Below, one piece after another: positions 4,834 through 62,391 of a stretch of 64,000 nucleotides of DNA (the first letter of the stretch is position 1; every line of letters starts with the position of its first letter). Location: positions 96,001-160,000 of the forward strand of contig CAVTWJ010000023.1 of the NCBI GenBank assembly GCA_963738405.1. The letters are read 5' to 3'. This DNA is from a candidate division FCPU426 bacterium (GTDB lineage: Bacteria > Oederibacteriota > Muellerivitia > Muellerivitales > Muellerivitaceae). The notes beneath the pieces were generated by a model. It was given only the letters and a program-made list of their open reading frames with translations, made no database searches and was not told where the DNA came from. Position numbers and translations under genes: made by a program.

Positions 4834-5032
4834 TCACCACAGAGACACGGATAATTAAAACGAAACAAAATTTCGCCACGGATACATGGGATTCATGGGA
4901 TTTTAAACCCATAAATGTTTTTTATCTTATCTGTGTGCATCCCATACATCTGTGGCCAATGAATGATTTTGCTGTTCGCCGTTTATTATTAACTTTTAAT
5001 ATTTTCTCTGTTCCATTGTGTCGCCGTGATGA
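4834..5032. repeat. Nested inverted-repeat elements related to family A
   Basis: Outer arms TCACCACAGAGACAC (from 4834) and GTGTCGCCGTGATGA (to 5032). Inner arms GCCACGGATACATGGGATTCATGGGAT (4875-4901) and ATCTGTGTGCATCCCATACATCTGTGGC (4929-4956). Confidence 0.65.
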
Positions 5033-5042
5033 ATTGATTTAC

Positions 5043-8014: not shown

Positions 8015-8042
8015 TGTCCACGATGGGTCCCCGTCGTGGACA
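8015..8042. repeat. Family B 28-bp palindromic cassette-boundary site
   Basis: TGTCCACGATG GGTCCC CGTCGTGGACA, identical to the copy at 58552. Confidence 0.95.
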
Positions 8043-8050
8043 GGTAATTT

Positions 8051-8782
8051 TTAAGTAGTTTCAATTCTAGTTATATTAACGAAAACCACTTTATCATTTT
8101 TAAAATTCAGAGTTATTGTCGCTGTGATGTCGTAAAACGGCTCTTTTCCGCCTTCCCATTTCTTCAGCGATTGATAGTTTCTTTGACCGGGCAAAACCTT
8201 AACTTGGGAATGGTAATAATATGTCCATTCGTCGTTCCGAAAATCTTTTTTGTCCCATTTTATTTCCTTAATCGCATCTCTTTTTGTGCCCGGTTCCGGG
8301 CTATATAAAAAACCATTTGGGTTACCAAATTTTTTTAAAATCCATTCTTTCGTAACGCCGATTCTTAACCCGCCCGCGGTTGAAATATCTTCATTCTTTT
8401 TATCGATGAGAAAATATTTTCTTGCATTTTCACCCTTGTTATCGAAGGGATACATACGCACAAGAGTAATAATTCGCCCCCCTCCGATTTCGCCCGAAAC
8501 AAATTCGATTGCTTGAGGATTTACCGGGTCATTGTTTCGGTAACAGATTTTATTTTCAAAACCTGACGCATCACCCGATTGAATGTTTTCTGCCTTGCCT
8601 AATCTATTAAGAACATCTAAAAGGCTTGTTTCATTTAAGAAAACATTAATTCCAATGATTATCTTTGTGCCTTTATCCATGTCGGCTTTTGACGTCGAAG
8701 ACGCAAATGCAGCACTAAATACACATAAGCCACAAATAAAAAAAGCGCGTAACGAAAAACTTAATATTTTGTCATTTGGCAT
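8051..8782 (-). CDS. AT-rich hypothetical exported protein (cassette cargo)
   Basis: ORF track gives 8051..8806; ATG at 8782 (MPNDK) follows GAGGGGG. Signal-peptide-like N-terminus. Bracketed by family B sites. Confidence 0.75.
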   Translation of the reverse strand: MPNDKILSFSLRAFFICGLCVFSAAFASSTSKADMDKGTKIIIGINVFLNETSLLDVLNRLGKAENIQSGDASGFENKICYRNNDPVNPQAIEFVSGEIGGGRIITLVRMYPFDNKGENARKYFLIDKKNEDISTAGGLRIGVTKEWILKKFGNPNGFLYSPEPGTKRDAIKEIKWDKKDFRNDEWTYYYHSQVKVLPGQRNYQSLKKWEGGKEPFYDITATITLNFKNDKVVFVNITRIETT

Positions 8783-8816
8783 CAGTCGTCCCCCTCGCAA
8801 ATACACTTTGAAACAT

Positions 8817-8881
8817 TGTCCAATACGGGTCCCCGCCCTGCAGCATGCGCTTGCGCTTAGCTACAGGGCCCGTCGCGGACA
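8817..8881. repeat. Family B site interrupted by a 37-nt hairpin insert
   Basis: TGTCCAATACG GGTCCC [insert 8834-8870] CGTCGCGGACA. Confidence 0.8.
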
Positions 8882-8892
8882 ATCTTAACCGC

Positions 8893-9245
8893 TTATTCAC
8901 GTACCCTTACCCGTCCTCTTTCAATAATCCACAACCTTTTATCCACCTGTTCTTTGGACAACAGATCCAATACCGGGCGGAAAAGTTCAACCATGGTGGG
9001 TTTGTCCTGGCGGTCCGAACGGATCACCATGATTCCAGGATATTTTTCCGGTGGGTAAGCCCGGATATCCGAAAAATCAAGGTCTGAGGTAATGAAGGCG
9101 CGGTTTTCGGCTAAGCAAACAACGGCTAAATTCGTATCAGGATGGCCGGTTAAATCTTGGTCTTTGACCGTAAGGGCGTCATGACCGGCTTGGATTAAAA
9201 GGTGTTTGATTTCGGAAGGCAGGTTTTCGTCGATTTTGAACTTCA

Positions 9246-9246
<1 letters not shown>
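8893..9246 (-). CDS. DUF5615 family PIN-like toxin
   Basis: MKFKIDENLP...GHDALTV...ENRAFITSDLDFSD; coupled to the DUF433 gene. Confidence 0.9.
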
Positions 9247-9491
<245 letters not shown>

Positions 9492-10837: not shown

Positions 10838-10869
10838 GTCCCTTCCCTACTTTCGATCGTTAAATGGGG

Positions 10870-12519
10870 CTAAACTTTTTGTTTAAGGCCCGTCACGCTG
10901 TAAGCTAGCACCTTGTCGGTCTTGCCCTTGACTTTAATGGGATCAAGCATGACGGCTTCGATCTTATGCTTCACCTTTTCGTAAGTGGCGGCGGATATCA
11001 AAATCTGCCCCTTTTCCGCAACTGATTCGAGCCGCTGGGTCAGATTGACGTTGTCGCCGATGGCGGTGTATTCCATCCGCTCGTTGGAGCCGATATTGCC
11101 CACGACCACCTCACCGGTGTTGATGCCGATGCCGATGTTGACTTCCTTCTTGCCCTCATCGCGCCACTTGGCCTGGAGCTCTTTCATTTTCTCGCTCATT
11201 TCCACCGCCGCTAAAACCGCCCGTTCGGCGTGGTCGGGGTAATCAATCGGCGCCCCATAGACGGCCATGATGGCGTCGCCCATGAATTTGTCGAGCGTCC
11301 CCTCATATTTAAAGATGATGGATGTCATCGCGGTGAAATATTCGTTAAGAATATGAACCACTTCCTCGGCCGTGAGGGCCTCGGACATGGGGGTGAATCC
11401 CCGGATATCAGAGAAGAAAATGGTGACCACCTTTTTCTCGCCGCCCAGTTTCAACCCGTCCTTATGCTCCAAAATGCGGTCCACCACGCTTTTGGTGACG
11501 TATTTGGAGAAGGCGCCCTTGATGACTTCTTTTTCCCGAAGGGACTTGGCCATGTTGTTGAAGGCGTCGGTCAGGTCGCCCAGTTCATCCGCGCGCTTGA
11601 TGTTGATCTTTTGGTCGAAATCGCCCCCGGCGATGGCCGTGACGCCGTTGACCAGAAGGCCGATGGGCTTGACTAGAAGGGTCACGAAGACCGCCATCCC
11701 GATAATGCCGATCAAGAGGAACACCACCGTCGTTAGGATGATGGCGACCGCCACATAGCGCACCACGAGAATGATGGTATTTTGGTTCATCCCCACATGT
11801 ACTTCCCCGACCTTGTCCTTGTGCCCCTCGGCGGTGTTGAGAATGGGGGTGGCGATGTCGTAATAGGTCTTGCCCCCCTTCTCATAGGCTTGGGTTAAAA
11901 CCGATTCCCCCGCGAGAGATTTAATCCCCGCCGGAAGTTGGAAAACAGCGTGTTCCATAACGTTCTTAATGTCGTTATCCGCCAGGTAGGTTCCGTCTTT
12001 GCCGATGATTTTCACGTATTCCATGTCGCTTTTCTTGACCTCGGCCTCGTCCGGCCAAAAGAACTGGCGCACGATCTCGTTCGCCACGTTGGAATAGGCC
12101 AACAACTGTTCTTGGAATGGGGAAAGGCCGGATGGGACTTGCCTGACCGATTCGGTGGCCTCGGTTTGCATGGCATCTTTGACGGATTGGAGCAAGGTCA
12201 GGCTGACATCCTCGCCCATCCCCGCCCCGGCGGTGGTAACGGCACCGGGACCGCTGGGGTTTTGGGCGGTTACCAACTTGAGGACTTCATCCACGCTGTT
12301 GGAAGCCAAACTGCGGGCCTGGGATTCGCCCCGATCCAAGGCCTGTTGGATCAGGATTTGCCGGGTTTGGTCCAACACCATCCATGTCACCACGCCCATG
12401 AGAGCGCAAATCAGGAAGGTCAAAACCATGATAAATTTGAGGCTGAGAGGAAAAAGATGGTGTTTTCGAACCGGCTTGGCCTTAGGGGAGGCTTCAACCA
12501 GCTGGGATTTCGGGCTCAA
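10870..12519 (-). CDS. Membrane class III adenylate/guanylate cyclase with periplasmic and HAMP domains
   Basis: Two TM segments, HAMP (DELGDLTDAFNNM), FSDIRGFT, DKFMGDAIMA, EYTAIGDNVN. Confidence 0.93.
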   Translation of the reverse strand: MSPKSQLVEASPKAKPVRKHHLFPLSLKFIMVLTFLICALMGVVTWMVLDQTRQILIQQALDRGESQARSLASNSVDEVLKLVTAQNPSGPGAVTTAGAGMGEDVSLTLLQSVKDAMQTEATESVRQVPSGLSPFQEQLLAYSNVANEIVRQFFWPDEAEVKKSDMEYVKIIGKDGTYLADNDIKNVMEHAVFQLPAGIKSLAGESVLTQAYEKGGKTYYDIATPILNTAEGHKDKVGEVHVGMNQNTIILVVRYVAVAIILTTVVFLLIGIIGMAVFVTLLVKPIGLLVNGVTAIAGGDFDQKINIKRADELGDLTDAFNNMAKSLREKEVIKGAFSKYVTKSVVDRILEHKDGLKLGGEKKVVTIFFSDIRGFTPMSEALTAEEVVHILNEYFTAMTSIIFKYEGTLDKFMGDAIMAVYGAPIDYPDHAERAVLAAVEMSEKMKELQAKWRDEGKKEVNIGIGINTGEVVVGNIGSNERMEYTAIGDNVNLTQRLESVAEKGQILISAATYEKVKHKIEAVMLDPIKVKGKTDKVLAYSVTGLKQKV

Positions 12520-48353: not shown

Positions 48354-49094
48354 CTATTTGTTCAATACCAATTCAGTTTTTCGATAGGACTTGGGCATCT
48401 GATCCCATGTGCGCCCGTCCAACGTCCGGCCGTTTTTCTTTTTCCAAACACCGCCCCACTGCTTGAAGAAAAAGGGAACCTTCGCCTTACGGCATTGTTT
48501 TTGAATATCAAGAACCCATTCCTTCTCCATGGGCCGAGCGCCTGGGCCTGATTCACCCCCGACGATGGCCCAATGAATGCCTTTCAGCTTCAAATTGGGA
48601 ATGGGGCTTAACAATGGTTCCAAAGAAAGAAATTTAATCTTAGCTTTTGTTTTTCTTAGTGAGTCTATGCGGTATGTGAACTTGTCGGATTCCACGCTTA
48701 CGCCCATCCAGATGTTGGGGGTCCATTTGAGGCCGGGACTAAGCATCTCAAGCCGGTCGGCCCTTTTAGTCAGCACTTGGAACTGGTGCCAATGGGCCTG
48801 GTTCATGACTTCAAAAATCTTCTTTACGAACTTTAATGGTATTTCCTGATGGAATAGATCGGACATCGAATTGACGAAAATGGTGCGGGGTTCCTTCCAA
48901 GTTAGTGGGAGGTTCAATCGATCCGGCCAAGTTCTCAAGTCAAAACCCTGCTCGTATGGATGCCCTGGAATACCACGCCACCTTTCGGCGAAACGTTCTG
49001 CATAGCAGTTGGCGCAACCGGCGCTAACCTTGTGGCAACCCGTTACTGGGTTCCAAGTTGAGTTGGTCCATTCGATGGTAGAAACTTCAGCCAC
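48354..49094 (-). CDS. DUF5131 family (phage Gp37/Gp68-like, three-Cys motif) protein
   Basis: IEWT..TWNPVTGC.KVS.GC.NCYA, FVNSMSDLFH, FLSLEPLL, IVGGESG, FFFKQWGG. Confidence 0.93.
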   Translation of the reverse strand: MAEVSTIEWTNSTWNPVTGCHKVSAGCANCYAERFAERWRGIPGHPYEQGFDLRTWPDRLNLPLTWKEPRTIFVNSMSDLFHQEIPLKFVKKIFEVMNQAHWHQFQVLTKRADRLEMLSPGLKWTPNIWMGVSVESDKFTYRIDSLRKTKAKIKFLSLEPLLSPIPNLKLKGIHWAIVGGESGPGARPMEKEWVLDIQKQCRKAKVPFFFKQWGGVWKKKNGRTLDGRTWDQMPKSYRKTELVLNK

Positions 49095-49104
49095 TTATTT
49101 CTCC

Positions 49105-49968
49105 TTAAAATTCAAAACCCATTTGTGGGGTTATATTCTTTTTAGTGTCACTCCAAAAACGCTGTCCCAATGGTTTACGACTGAAAAGCATCAAGTGATA
49201 GAGCAGAACGTTTTTTCCTTCAATGGTAACCCTTATGGAATCACTTGGGCCTCCATAACGATAACCAAGTTCTTTCATCTTTTCACAAAAATAATCCAGG
49301 ACAAACAAGGCGAAATCCCTATTTCCCGAGGCTATTACCTTTTCCCATTCCTTGCGCCAGTTTTGATCCCCGAAGAATTCATCTATCAATGGGTCATCCG
49401 GGTCCAAGTAAATATCCTGGTTTCGGCGAGCGTCATAACCAGTAGGTATTAAAACCAAAAAATCAACATACAGTTCAGACAGTCGTTTGATCGTCTTGAA
49501 TTTAATGTCGCTGATGCGAAAAGGATCCACTAAGCAAAACGAAAGACAGGAGCTACCCTTACCAAATTTTGGAATTTCTTCCAAGATTGCTTCAACATTC
49601 TGGTTGACGTCTCCCGTAATGATTTTGAACTTATCCGCATCACAAACCGCCGAAACCCTCTCGGCCAAAGCCGTGTAACATTCCGGATCTTGTTCACAGA
49701 AAATGTATTTATCGAAACGGTGCTCTACCCCCAAAGCTAATAACGGGGAACCGGGTACGATGATTCCCTGTTCCTCAATCTTAGATCGCCCTGCACCTGA
49801 AAAAAGATCAATGTAAACCCGGTTGTCCCACTTGGCTTTCATGCTGGTACTGAAAATTTTCAGGTAATAACTGATCGCTTGATACTTCTTCAAAGAATGG
49901 TCTTTGATCGACGGCGTTAGTAGGCCGTCATCCGCCAGTTGTGGGATTTCAGATGAATGATTTTCCAT
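49105..49968 (-). CDS. tcmP: Three-Cys-motif partner protein TcmP (methyltransferase-like fold)
   Basis: YIDLFSGAG, GSPLLAL, GDVN, LVDPF; directly upstream of DUF5131. Confidence 0.85.
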   Translation of the reverse strand: MENHSSEIPQLADDGLLTPSIKDHSLKKYQAISYYLKIFSTSMKAKWDNRVYIDLFSGAGRSKIEEQGIIVPGSPLLALGVEHRFDKYIFCEQDPECYTALAERVSAVCDADKFKIITGDVNQNVEAILEEIPKFGKGSSCLSFCLVDPFRISDIKFKTIKRLSELYVDFLVLIPTGYDARRNQDIYLDPDDPLIDEFFGDQNWRKEWEKVIASGNRDFALFVLDYFCEKMKELGYRYGGPSDSIRVTIEGKNVLLYHLMLFSRKPLGQRFWSDTKKNITPQMGFEF

Positions 49969-50115
49969 TGAACCAATTTCCTTAAATAGGTATACACAAG
50001 TATTCTAGCATATAGTGCAGTGCCACCAAAGGCCCTTGGTAGCGTTCATCCTTTTCACCCCGTCCAAACCTGATTTTTGGGGCATACCCTTTGACACTCG
50101 TTTTGTGAACGAGGG

Positions 50116-52545
50116 TCAGGGTGAATTCTGTACCGGTATAGATATCGCCATCTTCACCACTTTCGGGTTATAGGGCTTGGCGCCGCGCGTGTGCCAGTTG
50201 GTCTCGACCTTGTCCCATTCGCCTGGATCCACGACAAACAAAACATGGTTCCCCGGAGCGAGGTTTTGCAAAACGCCTTCCAAAGCCTTAGGGCTCTGCG
50301 CCATCTGCGGGTTTTGATCTACGCCCCAAACATGGTCGCCCGGCAGAAGGTTCGATTTTTCCACTGGGCTGTTTTGCCATTCCCCTTCCACCCGTCCCCC
50401 ATCGCCCAACAACACACCTTGGTTCAGGTAAGGCAATCCACTCACGGGTGCGTTCTTCCCCGCTCGGGCGTTTCGAATCCAAAATTCCAAGGCGGATAGC
50501 AAATGCTGGCAATCCTCAGCGGTGGCGCATTGAAACACCAAGGGCACCTTCAAACTCGATACCACCAATGAAAGCTGGTAGATCGGGTGGGGCGTTCCTG
50601 ACAACACCTCAATCTGGCAGGTGTGGATGGCCCTTACTTCTTCCCAATAAAATTCAATCTTGCTGGGCCCGCCTAATGGAAGGCCAAAGGGGTTATCCCC
50701 CTGAAAGGTCAAAACCAGGCTCGACATGTTGGGCATGAGTGTCAGTATCTTTTGGGTATCTTTTCCCACCTTCAGGGAATATTTTTCCGAATCCTGCATA
50801 TCCCCGGTTCGGCGCCCGGCCATGTCGGGGTTGATGCCCTCATCCGGCGTGACGGGAAAATCTTTCACCGTGGAGGGAAGAGGTATGGGGGCTATCTCAG
50901 CCTCCAGCATTTCTATTGTCTCGTCGGAAGCCTGCCAAGCATGACTGGGGAGATAGACTTGGACTGGGGTGTTAGAAACTGGTGTTAAAGGCTTTTTATC
51001 CCGGGGCCTTATTACCTTTTGGCCCGGGACAACTAAACCCCGCACCTCAGCCTGTTGCTTCGGTGCAAGTGACAGGTCACTCAAGGGTGTTTTTTGCGAG
51101 GCCTGATCGACCTTGGAAGCCGCACTCTCTGAATGGGTCCATGGGCTGAAAAGCCGGCCCACAAAACCCTCACCCCAACCAAGCATTCGGCCCGGATGGT
51201 GCCAAGCCCAAAGGATCGCCCAAAAGACCAAGAAGGTGAAAGCGAGCTGGATCAACCCGTTCACCCACTTTCCCTCGGCGCAAAGGCGGATGCCCTTTTC
51301 CAACATTCGATAGGGCAGTTTCACCAACCATTCCAGGCCCTTTAACAATTGGCTCCCAACCCATTTCAAGAATCTCAGCCATAAGGATTTGGATGCCTTG
51401 GCTTTAGAGCCCCCTTTGCCCTTAACGCCCCCCTTTGAACTGGCCTTCGCCTTGCCCTGGGCTTTTACCGTGCCTAAGTCTGAGGCGGCTTTTGTAAGGT
51501 GACCGGCCACTGCCGTTAGAACCTTGTGCAGCCCGCCCTGGGCGGGAGTGGGGGCATTGAGGGCGGCTTTGCCGTAATCCTCCGGTTGGTGGCCTTCCTT
51601 GATCCACGCCACAAAGGCCTTTACCTTGGCCTCGGTCATCTTATGTTCTATGGCCACGGCCAATGCCCGTCTAACCAAGTCTTGGGTTTCGGGGGGTATG
51701 ACGGGATAAGGCCATAGCTTTTGGGGTTCCAGCTGGGCTGAAGCCTCAAGCCGAAGCCCGTGACTTGCTTGTCCGGGCTCAATGGGGGTATCAGGAGCCG
51801 GGATCCCGACTTTCTTCTTGACCCCAGGCTTTAGGCCTGTTCCAGGGCCCAAACCTGCCAATTGTGCGGCGGCAATCTCGGAAATGCCCTTATTTCCCTT
51901 ATTTGAATTGCTCGTAATACGAGCAATTGAGGTCAATTCCGGGTTTGAATTGCTCGCAGTGCGAGCAATTAACTCCCTAGCCTCCGAGTTTAAGAGTGGT
52001 AAGAGCTTGATTGCCCTATTTACCTTCTCCTCGTCCATCTTTCTTTTGTCCGCGATCTGCCTTTGGGTGAGGTTCGGGTTGGCCTTTATCAGCAGTTCAA
52101 TGTGCAGGTAATCCCCCCACCAGCCCCTATCCCTGACCTTATTATCCCAATAGAGAAGATCGGCGGCTTCTTCGGGGTTCGGGTTGTGGATAAAGCCATC
52201 GATGCTCTCCCATTGAAGCAGTTCTGCGGCCCTGTCCCGCAGTTCCCCGCCATAGATCAAGTAATTGAAATCCCCCAGCTCCCAGGGCTTGCCATCCCCC
52301 CTTAGCCGGGGGTCATCGGGATGAAGCTGGGCCCCATTGGCCAGGGGGTTGGCCCTATCGGGACCCACCTGGATGGGGTTCTGGAGCCCCCTTTCGGCCA
52401 TATCATCCGCCTGATCCTTAATTTCTTGTTCGGTGGGCTTACCGGGGTTGTCCGGATTGCGGCGGAGGTTCTTGCGGGGGATCGGCTGTTTGCCGGGGAA
52501 AATTACAGGCAGAAGCTTCAAAACGTCTTCGATAGATACGGGCAT
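50116..52545 (-). CDS. ParB-like N-terminal domain + HTH + TM + PH-like + PDZ-like fusion protein
   Basis: NPDNP, GLQNPIQV, YLIYGGELRDRAA, LTQRQIADKRKMDEEKVNRAIKLL, TM LIQLAFTFLVFWAILWAW, FQCATAEDCQHLLSALEFW, NSPVEKSNLLPGDHVWGVD. Confidence 0.7.
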   Translation of the reverse strand: MPVSIEDVLKLLPVIFPGKQPIPRKNLRRNPDNPGKPTEQEIKDQADDMAERGLQNPIQVGPDRANPLANGAQLHPDDPRLRGDGKPWELGDFNYLIYGGELRDRAAELLQWESIDGFIHNPNPEEAADLLYWDNKVRDRGWWGDYLHIELLIKANPNLTQRQIADKRKMDEEKVNRAIKLLPLLNSEARELIARTASNSNPELTSIARITSNSNKGNKGISEIAAAQLAGLGPGTGLKPGVKKKVGIPAPDTPIEPGQASHGLRLEASAQLEPQKLWPYPVIPPETQDLVRRALAVAIEHKMTEAKVKAFVAWIKEGHQPEDYGKAALNAPTPAQGGLHKVLTAVAGHLTKAASDLGTVKAQGKAKASSKGGVKGKGGSKAKASKSLWLRFLKWVGSQLLKGLEWLVKLPYRMLEKGIRLCAEGKWVNGLIQLAFTFLVFWAILWAWHHPGRMLGWGEGFVGRLFSPWTHSESAASKVDQASQKTPLSDLSLAPKQQAEVRGLVVPGQKVIRPRDKKPLTPVSNTPVQVYLPSHAWQASDETIEMLEAEIAPIPLPSTVKDFPVTPDEGINPDMAGRRTGDMQDSEKYSLKVGKDTQKILTLMPNMSSLVLTFQGDNPFGLPLGGPSKIEFYWEEVRAIHTCQIEVLSGTPHPIYQLSLVVSSLKVPLVFQCATAEDCQHLLSALEFWIRNARAGKNAPVSGLPYLNQGVLLGDGGRVEGEWQNSPVEKSNLLPGDHVWGVDQNPQMAQSPKALEGVLQNLAPGNHVLFVVDPGEWDKVETNWHTRGAKPYNPKVVKMAISIPVQNSP
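51906..51970. repeat. Two perfect 23-bp palindromes inside the ParB-like gene
   Basis: AATTGCTCGTA-A-TACGAGCAATT (51906-51928) and AATTGCTCGCA-G-TGCGAGCAATT (51948-51970); 42-bp period. Confidence 0.9.
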
Positions 52546-55780: not shown

Positions 55781-56845
55781 TCAAACTTGAGATTCCCTTT
55801 CATCCAGCAGGGCCACCGAGAGGGCGGGAAAATAAAGGGCGCAAAAAACCACAAAAAAGGCCGCCGTGAACAGCATTCCAAAGAAACTCAAGAACCCCAC
55901 CAAAGGCACCAAAAGCGCCAGTATCAAGAAAATCTGGACCACGATAAAAAGCGCCGCTAGGCCTATCAGGGCCAAAAAGACGCACTTCGTGAAATGCCAG
56001 CCCTGGGCAGAGCAGGATTTCCAGCCAAGCGTTAAGGATTCGGCGATGCCTTTGCCGCTTCCCACCCAAGCCTTAACCGCCAGCGAATAGGCCACGATTC
56101 CAAAAGCCACGGCAAGGTAAAGGAGGAAAACAGGGATGCTGAAGCAAACCATGATGGCCAAAGAAAGGCCGTCGCTTAAATGCAGGGCATGGATGAATAA
56201 ACCAACCCCCATCCCAACGACGCGGAAACCCAGGCCGACCCCTAAGGAAATCACGAACAATAGAGCCAGGGTTGCCAGATAGGGGAGGAAACGCCCTAAG
56301 GCATCCTTAAAAAATTCTCCGAGGGAAAAACCCTTCCCCTCCCTCTTAAGCCTCCAAAAGGCCCCGTAGATACCGCCATTGACCAGGGCTTCCAAAAACA
56401 GCGCCCACAGGCAATAAAAAAACAGGAGACCCAAAAAAATACCAAGCCAGGAAGTATCGGATGTCCCTATGGAATAAAGTTTATTTGTAAATTCCTGGGG
56501 ATCGTAGCTGTCCGGGTTTTGAATAATATCCCCGAAGGCCTGCCCCATGGCCGCGATGAGCGGCCAACACCCAACCAGAAAAACCACCCCCAGCATGGCC
56601 AGGTTCATCAGGGCCGCCAGGGACTGGAGGATCAACAGGGGCCACATTTTCATGCAGGCTTGAAAGGCGTTTTGGAACAGGACAGAGAAGGAAGTTTCCG
56701 CGCCCACGGAGGGAGAAGGTGTGGCCGTTGCCTCGGGCGCGGCATTCGGGAGCACCACGCTTTCGACAGAACTTAAGCGGGGTTTGCGACGGGGTGTTCT
56801 GGGACGAGACGATTTTCTTACCGTCCGCTTCACTGATTTCGGCAT
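55781..56845 (-). CDS. Multi-TM hypothetical membrane protein
   Basis: Basic N-terminal tail followed by several hydrophobic helices; host-like composition. Confidence 0.8.
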   Translation of the reverse strand: MPKSVKRTVRKSSRPRTPRRKPRLSSVESVVLPNAAPEATATPSPSVGAETSFSVLFQNAFQACMKMWPLLILQSLAALMNLAMLGVVFLVGCWPLIAAMGQAFGDIIQNPDSYDPQEFTNKLYSIGTSDTSWLGIFLGLLFFYCLWALFLEALVNGGIYGAFWRLKREGKGFSLGEFFKDALGRFLPYLATLALLFVISLGVGLGFRVVGMGVGLFIHALHLSDGLSLAIMVCFSIPVFLLYLAVAFGIVAYSLAVKAWVGSGKGIAESLTLGWKSCSAQGWHFTKCVFLALIGLAALFIVVQIFLILALLVPLVGFLSFFGMLFTAAFFVVFCALYFPALSVALLDERESQV

Positions 56846-56881
56846 ATTGATCTCCGTTGTTAATCTTTCTTTTTAAACCAC

Positions 56882-56909
56882 TGTCCAATCAGGATCCCCA
56901 TCGCGGACA
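56882..56909. repeat. Family B site (degenerate, terminal)
   Basis: TGTCCAATCAG GATCCC CATCGCGGACA. Confidence 0.8.
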
Positions 56910-56956
56910 AGCCAAACACTTCATTGAAATTTGTATTCGGGGTATAAATCACCCGT

Positions 56957-57694
56957 TTATTTACCTAGTCGCAACTTTAATACGCTCAAAACCTTTTGGC
57001 GAGTTAGAACTGGAAGTCGGCTCAAAACCAAAGCGGAAACTTCCTTCATTTGTTCAAACAAAACAGATTCTTCTGAAGTGTCCTTCAATAAAGATGCCGA
57101 ACTATCCTTCATTGCGTCTTCGACACCATCTTCATCCAATTTACGGTCTTGCTCAGTTTTGTTTTGGCGTTCTCTCTCCTCCTGTTCGCCCATGGAAGAG
57201 ATACGACTTTGGCTATCCGCATTCGAGGTCCAATCCTCTTTCAATTCATGAACACGATTCAACAATCGGTTAATTTCCTTCAAGCCTTCCCATATCTCTT
57301 CCCCCGAAATTCCCGGTATCTTTCGCAAATCGGAAAGAACAAAGTCTTTCACACCTCGATCCAAACCCTTACCCCAATTCCGCATATCGGAAACATCCTC
57401 TTTGCCCGAAACAAAACCGATAAATGTATTGCAGGTCTCTTCGCCTACTTGATTAATTATTTTTTTACTTTGTTGGGTCGACATACCACTAATTGTCTTC
57501 AAAAAACGGCCATCTCCAAATAATTCGTAACTATTTTTTTGAGTTTCTTCCTCGTTTCTTAAATCGCGAAGACGAGTTATCAATTCCGCCTGGTGGATCT
57601 TATAAGTTTTGAATTGTTGGAAGAGAAAATACGAAAGAACAACGAAAAGTAATAGAAAAAGGTAAAAGTTGGCTGAATATTTATTCTTTTTCAT
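56957..57694 (-). CDS. AT-rich hypothetical protein with N-terminal TM anchor (cassette)
   Basis: 245 aa ORF filling the interval between sites 56882 and 57718. Confidence 0.75.
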   Translation of the reverse strand: MKKNKYSANFYLFLLLFVVLSYFLFQQFKTYKIHQAELITRLRDLRNEEETQKNSYELFGDGRFLKTISGMSTQQSKKIINQVGEETCNTFIGFVSGKEDVSDMRNWGKGLDRGVKDFVLSDLRKIPGISGEEIWEGLKEINRLLNRVHELKEDWTSNADSQSRISSMGEQEERERQNKTEQDRKLDEDGVEDAMKDSSASLLKDTSEESVLFEQMKEVSALVLSRLPVLTRQKVLSVLKLRLGK

Positions 57695-57717
57695 ACTCGT
57701 CCCATTTTTCCTTTAAG

Positions 57718-57745
57718 TGTCCACGACGGGTCCCTGTCGTGGACA
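57718..57745. repeat. Family B site
   Basis: TGTCCACGACG GGTCCC TGTCGTGGACA. Confidence 0.95.
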
Positions 57746-57757
57746 AGGTCTAGGGCG

Positions 57758-58201
57758 CTAAATCGGATTTCGAAAGTATTTTCCAAGAAATTCCCTAGGG
57801 GTAAGGATTTCCACTTCCTTCACTCGCTCCAGGGGACGGATATCTTGGTGGTCTCCCGTGACTAGGACACGGGCCTGGGCATCCACCGCGCATTCCAAAA
57901 TCCGGTTGTCAGCGTCTTTCCTTTTGATGGTTGTGAAATGGGAGCGGGGCTCGATGAGAACAAATACGGTTTTGAGCCTTCGCCTTAATTCAATGATGCG
58001 GTGATGGTCCCACCCGGCTTTTCGGGCCAGGGTATTTTCCAACTCGGCAAGGATATAGGACGAAACGACAGCTTCGATTTTTCCTTCCCGGGCCAATTCC
58101 AAGACTTTTAAGGGAGGGCTATCTTTTCCAAATGCCAGCGCGGAAAACAATACGTTGGTATCGACAACCACCCGTAATGGTTTACTTTCTGGCATCGTCA
58201 A
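57758..58201 (-). CDS. PIN family toxin
   Basis: RVVVDTNVLFSAL, DNRILECAV, LVTGD, ILTPREF. Confidence 0.92.
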   Translation of the reverse strand: MTMPESKPLRVVVDTNVLFSALAFGKDSPPLKVLELAREGKIEAVVSSYILAELENTLARKAGWDHHRIIELRRRLKTVFVLIEPRSHFTTIKRKDADNRILECAVDAQARVLVTGDHQDIRPLERVKEVEILTPREFLGKYFRNPI

Positions 58202-58430
58202 TCAGCTGTTCAACGTCCTCCGCCGTCCTGATTCCCATTTGGGCGGCCTTGCCTCGACCGTAAGAGACCAATTCCTGCCAATCCGCCTCCTCTTTTTGAT
58301 AACGCCTGAGCGCGTCCCGGAGCAACTCGGAGCGAGTCATTCCCTTTACCTTTGCCAGCCGGTCCATTTCACTGTAAACCTTTGGCGGGAGGGATATGGT
58401 TGTTGTTTTGCTGGTTCTTCCCGTGGCCAT
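58182..58430 (-). CDS. Ribbon-helix-helix (CopG-like) antitoxin
   Basis: TTTISLP...DRLAK..G.TRSELLRDALRRY; overlaps the toxin start. Confidence 0.9.
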   Translation of the reverse strand: MATGRTSKTTTISLPPKVYSEMDRLAKVKGMTRSELLRDALRRYQKEEADWQELVSYGRGKAAQMGIRTAEDVEQLIDDARK

Positions 58431-58551
58431 ATTTTTATCCTGTATTACTAAGTGTTACAATAAGCTTAATCCCAGAATACTTCGAATTCAATCCCGCAAT
58501 TCATTGAGAAACGGCCAAAATGAAAATCTGGGCTATTATCGGGCTTTCACC

Positions 58552-58579
58552 TGTCCACGATGGGTCCCCGTCGTGGACA
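58552..58579. repeat. Family B site
   Basis: TGTCCACGATG GGTCCC CGTCGTGGACA. Confidence 0.95.
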
Positions 58580-58597
58580 ACCTTTTATTTTTTAAGT

Positions 58598-58990
58598 CTA
58601 TTCTTTTTCCAAATCCATTTCTAATTCTTTGAAAATAAGGTAAAGCTTATGGCTTTCCTCTTTCAGTTTTTCATTAATTTCAGTTCCGATTTGTCCATAT
58701 TTTCGCGGATCAAACCAACAATCTAAAAGAAGACTACCCATACCGCCTATCAGAGACTTCTTTAGAAAAGTTATTTGTTTCTTGGAAAGTGGGCCTTCTT
58801 GCACCTCGATTAAAGAAGCGATGGCATTAAGTTCTCCCCAGCGTACTAGGGCATAAGGGTCCGGAACTAAGTCATTAATTTTTCCAGGAACGTCTTTATC
58901 CAAATATAAAATTTCAAACTTATCACGTGTAAGAGGTTTAAAAACTTCAGCTGTGATCCTAAGTTGTTCAACAAATTTTTGTTTATTCAT
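58598..58990 (-). CDS. AT-rich hypothetical protein with GGMGS motif (DUF6966-like; cassette)
   Basis: 130 aa, GAGGTGG SD, LIGGMGSL motif; family call tentative. Confidence 0.7.
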   Translation of the reverse strand: MNKQKFVEQLRITAEVFKPLTRDKFEILYLDKDVPGKINDLVPDPYALVRWGELNAIASLIEVQEGPLSKKQITFLKKSLIGGMGSLLLDCWFDPRKYGQIGTEINEKLKEESHKLYLIFKELEMDLEKE

Positions 58991-59013
58991 AATTAAATAC
59001 CCACCTCAATATC

Positions 59014-59041
59014 TGTCCACGACGGGTCCCCGTCGTGGACA
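59014..59041. repeat. Family B site (perfect arms)
   Basis: TGTCCACGACG GGTCCC CGTCGTGGACA. Confidence 0.95.
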
Positions 59042-59042
59042 T

Positions 59043-59399
59043 CTAATTCCAATTAGATTTTTTTCGTTTCATGTCAAATAATAACCTTAAAAATAATTTA
59101 CCTATTTTTGATAAAACAAAAATTGCCACAATACTAACAAAAACACTAATTATTCTAATTGTCCATACAATGCTTTCTGGAATAACACCCGCAAAAGATT
59201 GGCGGTGAGTTATCACGAAAACTGTGAAAAACCCGTCGAATAAATAAAAAATGGCGAAAGCGCAGACCAAAAAAAAGATGAGCAAAGCATCAGACCATTT
59301 TTTACGAAATTTATTTACTGGATCATCGTCAAAAGTATCAGGCATCTTTAATCCTAAGTTTTGTTTCTCTCTCAATTTATCTTCATTTTCTTTGTCCAC
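59043..59399 (-). CDS. Small two-TM hypothetical protein (cassette)
   Basis: Stop 1 nt from site 59014; first GTG lies inside site 59393. Confidence 0.7.
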   Translation of the reverse strand: MDKENEDKLREKQNLGLKMPDTFDDDPVNKFRKKWSDALLIFFLVCAFAIFYLFDGFFTVFVITHRQSFAGVIPESIVWTIRIISVFVSIVAIFVLSKIGKLFLRLLFDMKRKKSNWN

Positions 59400-59420
59400 G
59401 AAGGGTCCCCGTCGCGGACA
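59393..59420. repeat. Family B site
   Basis: TGTCCACGAAG GGTCCC CGTCGCGGACA. Confidence 0.95.
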
Positions 59421-59423
59421 ACA

Positions 59424-59792
59424 TTAAATCCAATTTACTTTATTTGGGCCCTCAGGTTTAGGCGGATTCTTTTTCCGCAATTCATCCTGCTTTTTGACGA
59501 TTTTAATAACCCAATAAAACCAATTTATTAAAAATAGTGCTAACCAAAAAAGCCTCAAATTAGACACAGCATCTTGGGTATCCTGTTTTAATATCGAATG
59601 AACACAAAAGCTGGAAAGCGGGAAAAAGATAAACATTATTCCTGTCAAGGTGAACAAACCGCCAAATGCCCAAACCGCGCCTTCGTATTTCGATAAATTA
59701 GAAAATGCAAATTTAAAATATATCGTTGCTAATCCCGAAAGAAGAACCCCGCCTGATAATCCCCAAAATATAAATTCACCCATTCTTTTCAT
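59424..59792 (-). CDS. Small three-TM hypothetical protein (cassette)
   Basis: Stop 3 nt from site 59393; start 20 nt from site 59813. Confidence 0.7.
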   Translation of the reverse strand: MKRMGEFIFWGLSGGVLLSGLATIYFKFAFSNLSKYEGAVWAFGGLFTLTGIMFIFFPLSSFCVHSILKQDTQDAVSNLRLFWLALFLINWFYWVIKIVKKQDELRKKNPPKPEGPNKVNWI

Positions 59793-59812
59793 CCTTCAAA
59801 CCCATAATTTGT

Positions 59813-59840
59813 TGTCCACGAAGGGTCCCTGTCGTGAACA
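59813..59840. repeat. Family B site
   Basis: TGTCCACGAAG GGTCCC TGTCGTGAACA. Confidence 0.92.
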
Positions 59841-59866
59841 ACATTTCCCGACCAACTCTTTAACTT

Positions 59867-60265
59867 TTATGGCAAACAATGAAATCCATGTTCTCCAAAA
59901 TGCTTGTCAAAGGTGTGAACGTTCTTGACCCCGTTTCGCCGCATAACTTCAAAGCTGACGCAATCCACGAGGCTCAAATTCCTTCGTTTGGCGGTCAGAA
60001 CGGCGGCAAGTCCCGCCTCATGGTAGTTCTCATCGACCCATTCCAATGATAGAAGCGGTACCACATCCCTTTGAAAATCGGCCACGGCTTCCAAACCCAA
60101 ACGGTTTTGGATTAGGGAGAACGTCTCTAAAAGGGTGTAATTAGTGGTCACCAAGGCGGCATCCGACTCCAGCAGGGATTTCCAAGCTTGATCGGCTTTT
60201 TCGTGGAAGCGGTCTTCTTTTGTCAAAAGTGCGATAAAAAAGGAAGTATCAATGAAAGAGGTCAC
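59867..60265 (-). CDS. VapC-type PIN toxin
   Basis: FIDTSFFIAL, LLET, LSLVDCVSFEVM, TFDKHF. Confidence 0.92.
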   Translation of the reverse strand: MTSFIDTSFFIALLTKEDRFHEKADQAWKSLLESDAALVTTNYTLLETFSLIQNRLGLEAVADFQRDVVPLLSLEWVDENYHEAGLAAVLTAKRRNLSLVDCVSFEVMRRNGVKNVHTFDKHFGEHGFHCLP

Positions 60266-60507
60266 TTGGCGTAGTCATCCGCCAGGTACTTGTCGTGATG
60301 GATGGAAAGATCGGTGTGCTTGGAATGAAATTTCCCGGAAATGGCGATGGCGCGTTTCCGCCGCTCCTCAGGGCTGATGATTCCATTCTTTAAAAATAAT
60401 TCAACCCCCTGCCGGATGGCCTCCGCCATGGATATATGACGTTCCTTGGCGATTTTTTTCAATGAAGTGGTTTGCTTTTGGGTTAATTGAATTTGGGTGC
60501 GAACCAC
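60262..60507 (-). CDS. CopG/RHH antitoxin
   Basis: MVRTQIQLT, SMAEAIRQGV, DLSIHHDKYL; overlaps the toxin start. GATAACAC direct repeat upstream. Confidence 0.9.
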   Translation of the reverse strand: MVRTQIQLTQKQTTSLKKIAKERHISMAEAIRQGVELFLKNGIISPEERRKRAIAISGKFHSKHTDLSIHHDKYLADDYAK

Positions 60508-60549
60508 GGACCCCTCCCGAGTGATAACACTTACAGCATTACGATAACA

Positions 60550-60786
60550 CTAAAGACTAATCTTGAAGCGAGAAAATCGGGGCCACATTCTCATGCAGGC
60601 TTGGAAGGCGTTTTGGAACAGGGTGGAGAAAGAAGTTTCCGCGCCAACGGACGAGGAAGGCGCGACCGGTGTCTCGGGCGCAGCATTCGGGAGCACCACG
60701 CTTTCGACGGAGGCCGGTACGCTTTTGCGGCGCGGGGCCCTGCGGGGGGAAGCAGTTTTCCTGGTTCTTTTGACCGGCTTCGGCAT
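60550..60786 (-). pseudogene. Truncated divergent copy of the 5' end of gene 55781..56845
   Basis: MPKPVKRT...SVESVVLPNAAPE...SVGAETSFSTLFQNAFQACMRMWP aligns with the N-terminus of that gene, then breaks off. Confidence 0.85.
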
Positions 60787-60841
60787 GTGTATCTCCGTTG
60801 TTAATCTTTCTTTTTATGGACAACCATTACTTAAATTTCAT

Positions 60842-60869
60842 TGTCCACGATGGATCCCAATCATGGACA
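60842..60869. repeat. Family B site (degenerate)
   Basis: TGTCCACGATG GATCCC AATCATGGACA; an extra half-site ATGGACAAC lies at 60816-60824. Confidence 0.85.
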
Positions 60870-60879
60870 AGGCTATCTT

Positions 60880-61290
60880 TCAAATCCAGGGATTGAAAAG
60901 CTTCAACCTTGAAAATGAAAAGTCATGGGTATTGCGGGTGACCAGGGTGAGATTGTGGGTAATTGCTGTTGCCGCGATAAACGCGTCCACCGTCGGCAAT
61001 GGGCGATTGGCCTGTGCTTCCAAAAGTCCCCAAGCTTCGGCTACCTTGATATCCACTGGCAATATTCTTTCTTCAAATTGAATTGGGACGTCTTTCTCAA
61101 GGAATTGAATAAGCTTGGTTTTCCGGGAACCATGTTCCATTTTCTCAATTCCTTTTCGGATTTCCCCCACGGTCAAAACGCTCAAATAAAGCGATCCTTG
61201 GTCCGCATCCTTCAGCCAACTTGACACCTTGGGTTCCGGATGTTTCTTGAAGAGTTCGGAAAGGACGTTGGTGTCCAAAAGGTATTTCAA
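60880..61290 (-). CDS. VapC-type PIN toxin
   Basis: YLLDTNVLSE, LSVLTVGEIRKGIE, DAFIAATA..HNLTLVTRN..DF, LFNPW. Confidence 0.95.
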   Translation of the reverse strand: MKYLLDTNVLSELFKKHPEPKVSSWLKDADQGSLYLSVLTVGEIRKGIEKMEHGSRKTKLIQFLEKDVPIQFEERILPVDIKVAEAWGLLEAQANRPLPTVDAFIAATAITHNLTLVTRNTHDFSFSRLKLFNPWI

Positions 61291-61535
61291 AACTTCACCT
61301 TTCGCGAGACGGATTTATTCCTTTGAAAATTCAAATCCAATCCGCGAAAAGGAGAATGCCTAAAAAACTCAACTAGGTTGGGTTTGGTTTTTCTCAGGCG
61401 CTCGTAGTCCTTTTTGGAAATCACAACGGCCTCTTCACGACCGTGTAATGTGATGGACTGCGGACCATTGTTTTTCACTGTTCGAATCAGTTCGCTGAAC
61501 CTGGCCTTGGCGGTTTGCAGTTGCCACGAAGTCAT
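61287..61535 (-). CDS. Phd/YefM family antitoxin
   Basis: WQLQTAKARFSELI...GPQSIT.HGREEAVVIS...Y. Confidence 0.93.
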   Translation of the reverse strand: MTSWQLQTAKARFSELIRTVKNNGPQSITLHGREEAVVISKKDYERLRKTKPNLVEFFRHSPFRGLDLNFQRNKSVSRKVKF

Positions 61536-61575
61536 CGGTTGCCCCCGTTGAAATATTTATGACTATTCTGACTAG

Positions 61576-61604
61576 ATTCTATATAGGACGAAACGCTTTG
61601 TCAA
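61576..61604 (-). promoter_or_regulatory. sigma70 promoter of the phd-vapC cassette
   Basis: Minus strand TTGACA-17 nt-TAGAAT, followed by a TAGTCA direct repeat (candidate antitoxin operator). Confidence 0.75.
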
Positions 61605-61612
61605 TTTTCCAT

Positions 61613-61641
61613 TGTCCGCGCCGGGGACCCCCTCGCGGACA
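61613..61641. repeat. Family B site with inverted core (29 bp)
   Basis: TGTCCGCGCCG GGGACC CCCTCGCGGACA; the core is the reverse complement of GGTCCC. Confidence 0.8.
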
Positions 61642-61667
61642 ACAGATCCCGACCCACTCTTTAACTT

Positions 61668-61864
61668 TTATGGCAAACAATGAAATCCATGTTCTCCAAA
61701 ATGCTTGTCAAAGGTGTGGACGTTCTTGACCCCGTTTCGCCTCATCACCTCAAAGTTGACGCAATTCACGAGGCTTAAATTCCTTCGTTTGGCGGTCAGA
61801 ACGGCGGCAAGTCCCGCCTCATGGTAGTTCTCATCGACCCATTCCAATGATAGAAGCGGCACCA
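61668..61864 (-). pseudogene. 3' fragment duplicate of the PIN toxin 59867..60265
   Basis: PLLSLEWVDENYHEAG...HGFHCLP is nearly identical; conserved Asp in LVDCVS reads LVNCVN; the 5' half is missing. Confidence 0.9.
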
Positions 61865-61890
61865 GTGGTTAATTGGTTTTGATATAGATT

Positions 61891-62391
61891 TTAGCGGTAA
61901 TTATTGAACTGGAGGGGAACCTTGATCTCCTGGGCGCTCCGAAGCAACTGCATCACCCCTTGAAGATCGTCCTTGTCCTTACCTGAAACCCTTACCTTCT
62001 CATCCACGATGGATACCTGCACCTTGAGCTTAGAATCCTTGACCCGCTTCACGATATCCTTGCAGGCCTCCATGGGCATTCCGCTGACGATCTTGACCTT
62101 CTGGTTAACCGTGCCGCTGAAGGCCGATTCGGCCTTTTGGTAATCCATGGCCTTGGGGGAGATGTTGCGCTTGATGAGTTTGCCGTTTAATACGTCCACC
62201 ACCGCTTTGAGGCGGGAATCATTATCAGAAACGATTTCCAATTCTTTGGTGGCCTTGTTGAGGGTGATCTTGCTGATGCTTCCCTTGAAATCGTAGCGCT
62301 GGGTAATTTCTTTCATCGCTTGGTTGACGGCGTTGTCCACTTCCTGCAGGTCCACCTCGGAAACCACGTCAAAGGAGTATTGATCAGCCAT
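61891..62391 (-). CDS. yajQ: YajQ family nucleotide-binding protein
   Basis: SFDVVSEVDLQEVDNAVNQA.KEI..RYDFKG, VRVSGK..DDLQ, PLQFNNYR. Confidence 0.96.
   Translation of the reverse strand: MADQYSFDVVSEVDLQEVDNAVNQAMKEITQRYDFKGSISKITLNKATKELEIVSDNDSRLKAVVDVLNGKLIKRNISPKAMDYQKAESAFSGTVNQKVKIVSGMPMEACKDIVKRVKDSKLKVQVSIVDEKVRVSGKDKDDLQGVMQLLRSAQEIKVPLQFNNYR

Follow-up and report, generated by a model that had tools for sequence, protein, structure and literature searches.

What separates the small genes that follow one another in part of the chromosome of a candidate division FCPU426 bacterium? The window analyzed here is the whole 64,000-nucleotide stretch of contig CAVTWJ010000023.1 (assembly GCA_963738405.1, positions 96,001 to 160,000). 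Between window positions 56882 and 61641 lie eight copies of a 28-bp palindromic site, and the intervals between them hold small cassettes, mostly of one gene or one toxin-antitoxin pair each; this run is called array 1. Sites of this kind form arrays in the window and in related genomes, keep a strict orientation relative to the genes, bound the cassettes that are shuffled and exchange their halves near the center. With a slight preponderance of probability, the 28-bp element is read as a duplex crossover site of conservative recombination with central exchange, served by a trans-acting recombinase, probably a serine recombinase.

The site was located by a mismatch-tolerant search and by direct reading of positions 56700-62000. 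Copies start at 56882, 57718, 58552, 59014, 59393, 59813, 60842, and 61613, with spacings of 836, 834, 462, 379, 420, 1029, and 771 bp; all eight had been listed in an earlier description made from the letters of the window alone (the sequence-only reading), and all were found again. Dinucleotide-preserving shuffles of the window gave 0 matches. On the coding strand, the layout is that of a 13-2-13 palindrome, TGTCCACGACGGG-GA-CCCGTCGTGGACA, in which positions 1-13 are complementary to 16-28, leaving just two asymmetric bases in the middle (TC on the plus strand, GA on the coding strand). An Xer-type 11-6-11 layout had been proposed before; the length and the inverted arms fit it, but the symmetry runs to a 2-bp center, for which 13-2-13 is the apter description. 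The palindrome frequently continues outward to GTTGTCC...GGACAAC. Conservation spans 28-32 nt and the flanking sequence is unrelated. Five copies in array 1 are near the consensus and three are degenerate: 56882 (7 mismatches to the consensus), 60842 (5 mismatches), and 61613, which is 29 nt long and has a flipped center (GGGGACCCC on the plus strand). As single-stranded DNA, the perfect copy at 59014 has a predicted fold of -15 kcal/mol, in which a stem of 12 bp carries a loop of 4 nt. The outer TGTCCACG resembles what we take to be half a parS site; a parS-like binding site was considered and then dropped.

The features of array 1, including its open reading frames (ORFs; lengths in amino acids, aa), are the following.

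56882..56909, minus strand: site copy 1, degenerate, downstream-most of the array in the coding direction; right arm in the alternative form TGATTGGACA
56957..57694, minus strand: cassette ORF, 245 aa, no family match, one N-terminal hydrophobic stretch
57718..57745, minus strand: site copy 2 (sequence search)
57758..58430, minus strand: cassette with PIN_3 toxin (57758-58201) and RHH antitoxin (58182-58430) (domain search)
58552..58579, minus strand: site copy 3 (sequence search)
58598..58990, minus strand: cassette ORF, 130 aa, no family match; interval of 34% G+C
59014..59041, minus strand: site copy 4, perfect 13-2-13 palindrome (sequence search, DNA fold)
59043..59399, minus strand: cassette ORF of at most 118 aa, no family match; interval of 30% G+C
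59393..59420, minus strand: site copy 5 (sequence search)
59424..59792, minus strand: cassette ORF, 122 aa, no family match
59813..59840, minus strand: site copy 6 (sequence search)
59867..60507, minus strand: cassette with PIN toxin and RHH antitoxin, 85% identical over 753 bp to a cassette of genome CAWJKT01 (M17 2898-3649)
60579..60816, minus strand: duplicated leader and 5′ end of gene 55781-56845 (source 56638-56875), 77% identical, joined to site copy 7
60842..60869, minus strand: site copy 7, degenerate (sequence search)
60880..61535, minus strand: cassette with PIN toxin and PhdYeFM antitoxin (domain search)
61604-61576: sigma-70-like promoter match (11/12 positions) ahead of the PhdYeFM/PIN pair, just past site 61613
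61613..61641, no strand assigned: site copy 8, 29 nt, center flipped relative to the others (sequence search)
61624..61864, minus strand: remnant of the 3′ end of PIN gene 59867-60265 (compared with 59823-60063), 93% identical, between yajQ and array 1

The cargo of array 1 thus consists of four ORFs without Pfam or NCBIfam match and three PIN-toxin/antitoxin pairs. Interval 59841-60841 holds, besides its PIN/RHH pair, the ~240-bp duplicated 5′ end and leader of flanking gene 55781-56845. Both duplications inside the array, that of this membrane-protein gene and that of the 3′ end of the PIN gene, terminate at or in sites. ORF content, strand, and the distances from stop codon to site and from site to start codon are as first described. 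In the site-to-start gaps of ~20 nt a ribosome-binding site is present and the space is too small for a promoter.

A second, two-site array at 8015-8881 had been overlooked. Its features are as follows.

8015..8042, minus strand: perfect site (sequence search)
8051..8806, minus strand: cassette ORF of at most 251 aa, no family match; surrounding 1 kb of 40% G+C
8817..8881, minus strand: 65-nt site variant with a 33-nt palindromic insert within the right arm (plus strand), flanked by a 4-nt duplication (CCCG, plus strand)
8893..9479, minus strand: DUF5615 (PIN-like) and DUF433 pair adjoining array 2

In coding orientation, the underlying right arm of 8817-8881 has the alternative form GTATTGGACA. 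A tiny hairpin element has apparently been inserted into this arm. Upstream of the DUF5615/DUF433 pair no site was found.

Occurrence of the site in other genomes was determined by scanning a degenerate 28-mer against 185,579 species-representative genomes; the figures on relatives given here rest on the matches listed. Besides the window, the site is present in at least seven assemblies and at least 57 loci. All listed assemblies are metagenome-assembled genomes (MAGs), one of them labelled Candidatus Firestonebacteria and two 'uncultured proteobacterium'; the genome to which the window belongs is not on the list. The listed loci were merged into 34 segments (labels M; single loci, L) of ~320 kb in total, and a Hamming scan allowing up to 7 mismatches was applied to these segments and the window. 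This yielded 134 site copies, with 0 in shuffles. In MAG CAVYRH01 the site lies on at least 13 contigs, so that the element is genome-wide in this lineage. In MAG CAWJKT01, the ruvA-ruvC-yebC region is syntenic with the window at 69-70% nucleotide identity. On its contig 6 (263-275 kb; L010/L011) a four-site array is situated by a tRNA and ruvA, and the syntenic part of the window (22.9-26.4 kb) is without a site; array positions are therefore not conserved between relatives.

The site with short flanks (36 nt) had no match in plasmid and phage collections. Comparison of the window with Rfam at gathering scores returned one tRNA only, and no CRISPR repeat family (CRISPR, short palindromic repeats clustered at regular spacing). 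Topical literature searches, judged from the lists of results, gave no published description of the site, and a search with 14-nt pieces of it, outside of which lay about 1.7 million PubMed Central articles, found no paper.

Across the segments and the window, the arrays follow common rules. Only 2 of the 134 copies oppose the majority of their segment, and for 105 of 130 crude ORFs within arrays the coding strand is the one that shows the site as ...GGGGACCC... (TGTCCACGACGGGGACCCGTCGTGGACA). The site follows the co-oriented stop codon at a median distance of 28 nt; this distance is at most 60 nt for 88/124 sites, compared with 15/122 random positions. Intervals between sites (n = 90) have a median of 876 bp and range from 290 to 3186 bp. 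G+C content is 0.471 within arrays and 0.520 outside. Cargo includes many PIN/VapB, BrnT/BrnA, HigB, RelE/MqsA, and GNAT genes, further nucleotidyltransferases, ordinary enzymes (e.g., a 731-aa GH43 protein), and many ORFs without a family. The view that these are compact, mostly promoterless cassettes bounded by a distinct kind of site was borne out. Several CAVYRH01 arrays (L053 1-3000; L018 1-4700; L023) abut genes of the conjugative-element type, coding for an ArdC-like metallopeptidase, RadC, HigB/HigA, and a 687-aa ParB_N protein.

Movement of the cassettes was examined by all-against-all comparison of the segments and the window. Homology blocks stop 0-3 nt from sites. The cassette at M01 2019-2937 is 100% identical in M12, M23, and M29, each time with different neighbors, and the adjacent cassette pair at M02 10381-12194 recurs at M34 5000-6813, with divergence at sites on both sides. 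A BrnT/BrnA cassette is shared by four genomes at 81-84% identity; its homology begins just past one site and ends with the next. Two cassettes stand as A-B in M07 but as B-A in M17. The window cassette at 59812-60562 is 85% identical to its CAWJKT01 counterpart, compared with 69-70% for the syntenic core, which points to cassette transfer. Cassette-wise variation that breaks exactly at the sites, as the sequence-only reading had anticipated, is thus seen both between arrays and between genomes. Misjoining at sites during assembly is unlikely, we infer, because both assembler k-mers and long reads exceed the repeats in length.

The point of exchange within the site was mapped using natural site variants as markers for the linkage of each half-site to its neighbor. 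In 11 pairs of sites that share the downstream neighbor and differ upstream, positions 19-28 are identical in 10, including the rare variants ATCGTGGACA and TTCGTGAACA. In nine pairs that share the upstream neighbor and differ downstream, the right arm differs in five, with little or no change in the left 18 nt; in the left arm, variant bases at positions 6 and 9 go with the cassette upstream. From this linkage, exchange falls within positions 10-18, that is, centrally, at a resolution coarser than the central dinucleotide. Accordingly, the 5′ end of a cassette bears a right half-site and its 3′ end a left half-site. Central exchange argues against an integron crossover at the 3′ edge, against HUH cleavage beside a hairpin, and against Cas1-type duplication of a repeat; it also argues against shuffling via recombination between site-adjacent intron copies. 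It fits a recombinase that cuts duplex DNA at the site center, and fits rare homologous crossing-over within the repeat less well.

Conservation was assessed on 70 distinct site sequences. Changes in paired positions are overwhelmingly one-sided and pair-breaking, with 0-4 compensated cases per pair: for pair 8-21, 29 are broken, 3 are G-T, and 0 are compensated; for pair 10-19, 23 are broken and 4 compensated. The central G14 and A15 are each kept in 121/123 copies. Best kept are the outer TGTCC and GGACA blocks and the central GGGGAC; conservation is higher in the left arm than in the inner part of the right arm (C10 in 99/123, G19 in 76/123). One-sided, pair-breaking changes together with conserved sequence argue for a duplex site that is read by a protein, and not for a structure under selection. 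A hairpin nuclease of the HUH/RAYT type (RAYT, the tyrosine transposase associated with repetitive extragenic palindromes, REPs) had been offered before as one possible enzyme. With exchange central and compensatory changes almost absent, neither this option nor a single-strand mechanism of any integron-like kind is supported.

The same data bear on the idea that the hairpin acts in RNA or in transcription, as a stabilizer of 3′ ends, a processing signal or a weak terminator, and merely travels with accessory genes. Its position on the coding strand, a median of 28 nt past stop codons, and its stable stem-loop are what such a signal would show. We nevertheless regard this explanation as quite unlikely, as the near absence of compensatory changes speaks against it, and homology breaks inside the site are not what an RNA signal predicts. 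A T-run on the coding strand follows none of the window sites, which do not have the form of intrinsic terminators; the sole terminator call among them, at 58552, is on the antisense strand. Moreover, downstream cassettes have ribosome-binding sites and no room for a promoter, so that transcription must read through the sites.

A further explanation is an interspersed palindrome of REP type without a dedicated recombinase, spread in some other way and settling after accessory genes, with rare RecA-type recombination between the repeats as the source of shuffling. A perfect, hairpin-capable palindrome that occurs in many places per genome and serves, as REPs and terminators do, as a target for elements of the insertion sequence (IS) family IS110 and for group II introns would suit this explanation, as would the fact that no recombinase recurs beside the arrays. 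Central exchange, too, is compatible with crossing-over in the longest identical stretch. Scatter between conserved housekeeping genes, as for an ordinary REP, had been named at the outset as a pattern at odds with a cassette system. Sites are indeed scattered genome-wide in relatives, but they stand in arrays by accessory genes and not between housekeeping genes. In the window, no site lies beside Pfam-identified core genes or in housekeeping intergenic regions, and 10/10 copies flank low-G+C accessory genes, within two accessory clusters of 30-50% G+C compared with 51% for the window. Against a REP stand also the strict orientation relative to genes, despite an asymmetry of only 2 nt, and the near-invariance of the central GA. 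An identity of 18-28 bp is a very poor substrate for RecA, and a permuted cassette order needs excision and reinsertion. No Y1/RAYT transposase was found among 391 ORFs (70 from the window and 321 locus representatives). A REP-like origin is for these reasons considered unlikely.

Group II introns were found at the sites themselves. An intron begins 2 nt past the site in 10/123 sites (among them those in L045:5029-8530, L020, L050, and L024), in 10/10 cases with the cassette genes on the same strand. The examples that were scanned correspond to Rfam RF02003 and RF00029, and reverse transcriptase/maturase ORFs are present. Most are ORF-less derivatives of ~830 bp, many of them 99% identical, and one full-length copy is split by an IS110 element. 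Class C introns habitually insert just past a stem-loop, and the insertions found here are of this kind, after a stem-loop and on the sense strand. A second IS110-family element begins right past site position 28 in three contexts. Both group II introns and IS110 elements thus use the palindrome as a landing place. This second element (L025:6943-8019 region, M09 10913-12291; M10 5029-6407; M11) occurs in both orientations relative to the site, and carries a site-like sequence with a hairpin insert near its 3′ end.

Introns at sites are also known from integrons, where class C-attC introns lie at attC (PMC3001079). Together with the promoterless single-gene cassettes, the toxin-antitoxin cassettes and the many dispersed arrays, they could suggest an integron or an integrase-less attC cluster in which a very short folded attC is used by an IntI-type enzyme, or in which an HUH/Y1 enzyme cuts beside the hairpin. 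The introns here are, however, on the strand of the cassette genes in all ten cases, and those at attC are on the opposite strand according to the same source (PMC3001079). The site is only 28-32 nt long with unconserved flanks, its sequence is conserved and its structure is not, and exchange is central and not at the 3′ edge. The only tyrosine integrase seen, a partial one 700 nt past a solitary site at a contig end, scores as a generic integrase only, with 43 bits compared with the 265-bit cut-off of the integron-integrase family (TIGR02249). Taken together, these points make an integron or attC cluster, or an HUH/Y1 enzyme that cuts beside the hairpin, very improbable.

In CAVYRH01, a 1.5-kb module was found that comprises cas1 (Pfam E 3e-68; TIGR00287, 251 bits) and an overlapping Cas2-like ORF (Pfam Cas2, E 0.021). 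cas1 begins 45 nt past the last site of three arrays of this genome (L001:782-2154; also L025/L026 and L033), the M09 copy being frameshifted. The best solved relative of this Cas1 is Archaeoglobus Cas1 (4n06), and on reading the alignment the catalytic motifs look intact. A Cas1-Cas2 integrase that inserts gene-sized DNA at a repeat, giving CRISPR-like arrays with giant spacers, would account for this position and for the 28-bp direct repeats that flank each insert. It would also predict repeats copied from the recipient, yet the right arm travels with the downstream cassette, and the cas1-cas2 module itself bears its own right-arm variant. In view of this half-site linkage, the module appears to be cargo or a terminal module and not what drives the arrays. 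The same cassettes turn up in other arrays with unchanged borders, they are tightly filled with ORFs in a single orientation, and their spacing of 290-3186 bp is far from the about 20-70 bp of CRISPR spacers, in keeping with the lack of an Rfam CRISPR-repeat match. A cas1 gene was seen in 1/8 genomes and not in the window. On all these counts, insertion by Cas1-Cas2 is hardly credible as an explanation of the arrays.

The cas1-cas2 module ends in a 36-bp repeat, of which eight identical copies were found in CAVYRH01 segments with unrelated flanks, 8/8 co-oriented with the arrays. This repeat (L001:723-758 and 13-48; L033:7074-7109) resembles a CRISPR repeat and is solitary; two of its copies are inside ORFs that look chimeric. 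Between two direct copies, 710 bp apart, lies a fragment of a TPR gene. A permissive Rfam scan around cas1 gave nothing credible.

From these data, a circular intermediate and the class and identity of an enzyme are inferred as follows. The system would move, reorder, and exchange small cassettes of one gene or one toxin-antitoxin pair each. Two sites in direct repeat would recombine to give a free circle that bears one complete site, and recombination of this circle with any other site would insert the cassette in a fixed orientation. The enzyme would be encoded elsewhere in the genome, act on duplex DNA and swap strands at the site center. A serine recombinase dimer probably fits best, because the layout is 13-2-13, the central GA is non-palindromic and almost invariant, and the outer TGTCC/GGACA blocks are strongly conserved. 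Half-sites of 13 bp about a 2-bp center agree with the layout of a resolvase site I (about 26-28 bp, with 12-13-bp half-sites). The non-palindromic GA would provide polarity without accessory sites, which matches the strict orientation. Second, and less likely, is a tyrosine recombinase whose overlap region is short, as a 6-bp overlap (11-6-11) gives no reason for the symmetry to reach into it. According to PMC4499144, Tn3 resolvase site I is 28 bp long, begins with TGTC, ends with GACA, and is cut at a central AT. The TGTC common to it and the 28-mer may be due to chance.

A candidate enzyme is the short serine recombinase encoded at L053:3498-4325, a protein of 275 aa with no domains other than Resolvase and Recombinase. 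The gene stops 15 nt from site M34 4340, the last of array M34, and a decayed version of this recombinase-site junction is present in a second genome (L008). For the 19 closest clusters at 90% identity (68-100% identical to the protein), length is 275-283 aa throughout and the end point is the same, which indicates a conserved short form, a clade of ~276 aa. More remote relatives (at most 59% identity) have a zinc-ribbon domain or are fragments. The idea that L053:3498-4325 encodes a large serine recombinase truncated by the array was dropped, the 19 related clusters being equally short. In a large serine integrase, half-site positions 1-12 lie under the recombinase domain and positions 16-24 under the zinc ribbon (PMC3783163). 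Having no zinc ribbon, the candidate should need ~12-13 bp per half-site, the size found here. In a plasmid protein search, the short recombinase had only relatives of 31-32% identity, in two records.

Several observations weigh against a duplex crossover site worked by a trans-acting recombinase. First, no recombinase recurs beside the arrays, as judged by Pfam searches that covered the 70 window ORFs and 321 ORFs chosen as representatives of ~320 kb of flanks. Near arrays, single cases were seen of the short serine recombinase, the partial tyrosine integrase, IS3, IS110, and DDE transposases, and cas1. When 354 ORFs were clustered, the families present in more than one genome were cargo, intron reverse transcriptases, and IS110 only. 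Within the window, the domain scan of the 70 ORFs gave no recombinase domain, in agreement with what had been noticed before, and no homologue of the 275-aa candidate. The short serine recombinase itself is intact in only 1/34 segments and, being beside ArdC/RadC genes of the conjugative-element type, may belong to another element. Second, 123 sites yielded no filled-versus-empty pair, in which cassette number would differ between matching flanks. The comparison genomes are MAGs, so that some of the 'different contexts' may be strain variants binned together. Third, RecA-type recombination within the repeat also yields central exchange when the partners differ at positions 19-22. Finally, a second form of the right arm, CCC-GGAKT-GGACA, is present in 17 copies with unrelated flanks, in at least six genomes and in the window (56882, 8817), and such a recurrent arm does not follow from a simple homodimer model. 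The GGATT form is the first in its array in 5/8 cases. A more specific version of the recombinase reading can be put forward only tentatively: the arrays may be an independently arisen, integron-like capture platform run by the ~276-aa serine recombinase, with duplex circles, polarity set by GA, and the GGAKT arm as a second kind of partner site.

The surroundings of both window arrays are core chromosome, with mutS, miaB, scpAB, trpS, rplS-trmD-rimM-rpsP, ruvABC, suf genes, glyQS, ppdK, recO, yajQ, rodZ, and lolA; nearly all of these core genes are on the minus strand. A low-G+C block at 48354-52545, possibly an accessory island of its own without sites, codes for DUF5131, the three-Cys-motif partner protein TcmP (TIGR04474, E 2e-38), and a protein of 809 aa that has a weak ParB-like match.

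Integrons and, more recently, Xer-dependent modules are the known bacterial ways to stockpile and reshuffle single-gene cassettes. An attC site is about 55-140 nt long, with R''-L''...L'-R' boxes and the consensus RYYYAAC ... GTTRRRY; the outer bases of the 28-mer, GTTGTCC...GGACAAC, are the reverse of this box arrangement. The sequence-only reading had stated that the site is not attC, and none of the attC features compared (length, conservation of structure, position of crossover) is found in it. In integrons, the structure of attC and not its sequence is conserved, as an imperfect hairpin with extrahelical bases; here, a near-perfect palindrome is conserved in sequence and undergoes pair-breaking changes. 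Integron crossover at the 3′ edge lets the site travel with the upstream ORF, unlike positions 19-28 here, which travel downstream (10 of 11 pairs). Half a site goes with each neighbor, introns are on the sense strand, and no IntI, attI, or common promoter was seen, intI being absent from the window and from within 5 kb of the 34 related segments. The likeness lies in the architecture: compact, mostly promoterless, co-oriented single-gene cassettes, many of them toxin-antitoxin pairs, in several arrays per genome, which shift in place and order and are targets of group II introns and IS110-family elements.

Acinetobacter pdif modules have in common with the present arrays 28-bp sites, small toxin-antitoxin or accessory-gene modules, and a recombinase that is encoded elsewhere. 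The better-kept left arm recalls what we take to be the unequal XerD and XerC arms. In pdif modules the orientation of sites alternates, in contrast to the direct repeats found here (2/134 opposing), and unlike Xer sites the 28-mer has identical inverted arms and its conserved arm positions are outer, not inner. The arms themselves are presumably unlike those of XerC and XerD. With REP/RAYT systems the site shares short, multi-copy, hairpin-capable palindromes after genes and the role of IS110-family target; it differs in that copies are limited to accessory-gene arrays, orientation is strict, homology breaks inside the element, and no RAYT was seen.

In form, the site can be compared with crossover sites of serine recombinases of the resolvase/invertase type. 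It resembles Tn3/gamma-delta res site I and hix/gix in its 28 bp and its ~13-bp inverted half-sites about a central dinucleotide, at which exchange would take place, and site I in its TGTC...GACA ends (PMC4499144), and it resembles serine integrase att sites in a non-palindromic central pair that would give polarity. It is unlike res site I and hix/gix in having no conserved accessory sites or enhancer around the 28-mer. Moreover, the 28-mers bound gene cassettes, whereas res resolves cointegrates and hix/gix invert a switch, and the cognate enzyme here is a candidate only. The site is not attC, is not used in a pdif-like way, and behaves neither as a REP nor as a CRISPR repeat. Searches with attC models would be expected to miss such arrays, so that the cassette pool of metagenomes is probably underestimated. 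If the enzyme is a serine recombinase, or any other recombinase outside the IntI and Xer groups, platforms for cassettes arose on more than one occasion in evolution. A minimal 28-bp site that has polarity of its own and needs no accessory sequence would, if confirmed, be of practical interest for DNA assembly. The arrays represent, in an uncultured lineage, an integron-like genome architecture whose site and crossover geometry differ from those of integrons and Xer-dependent modules.

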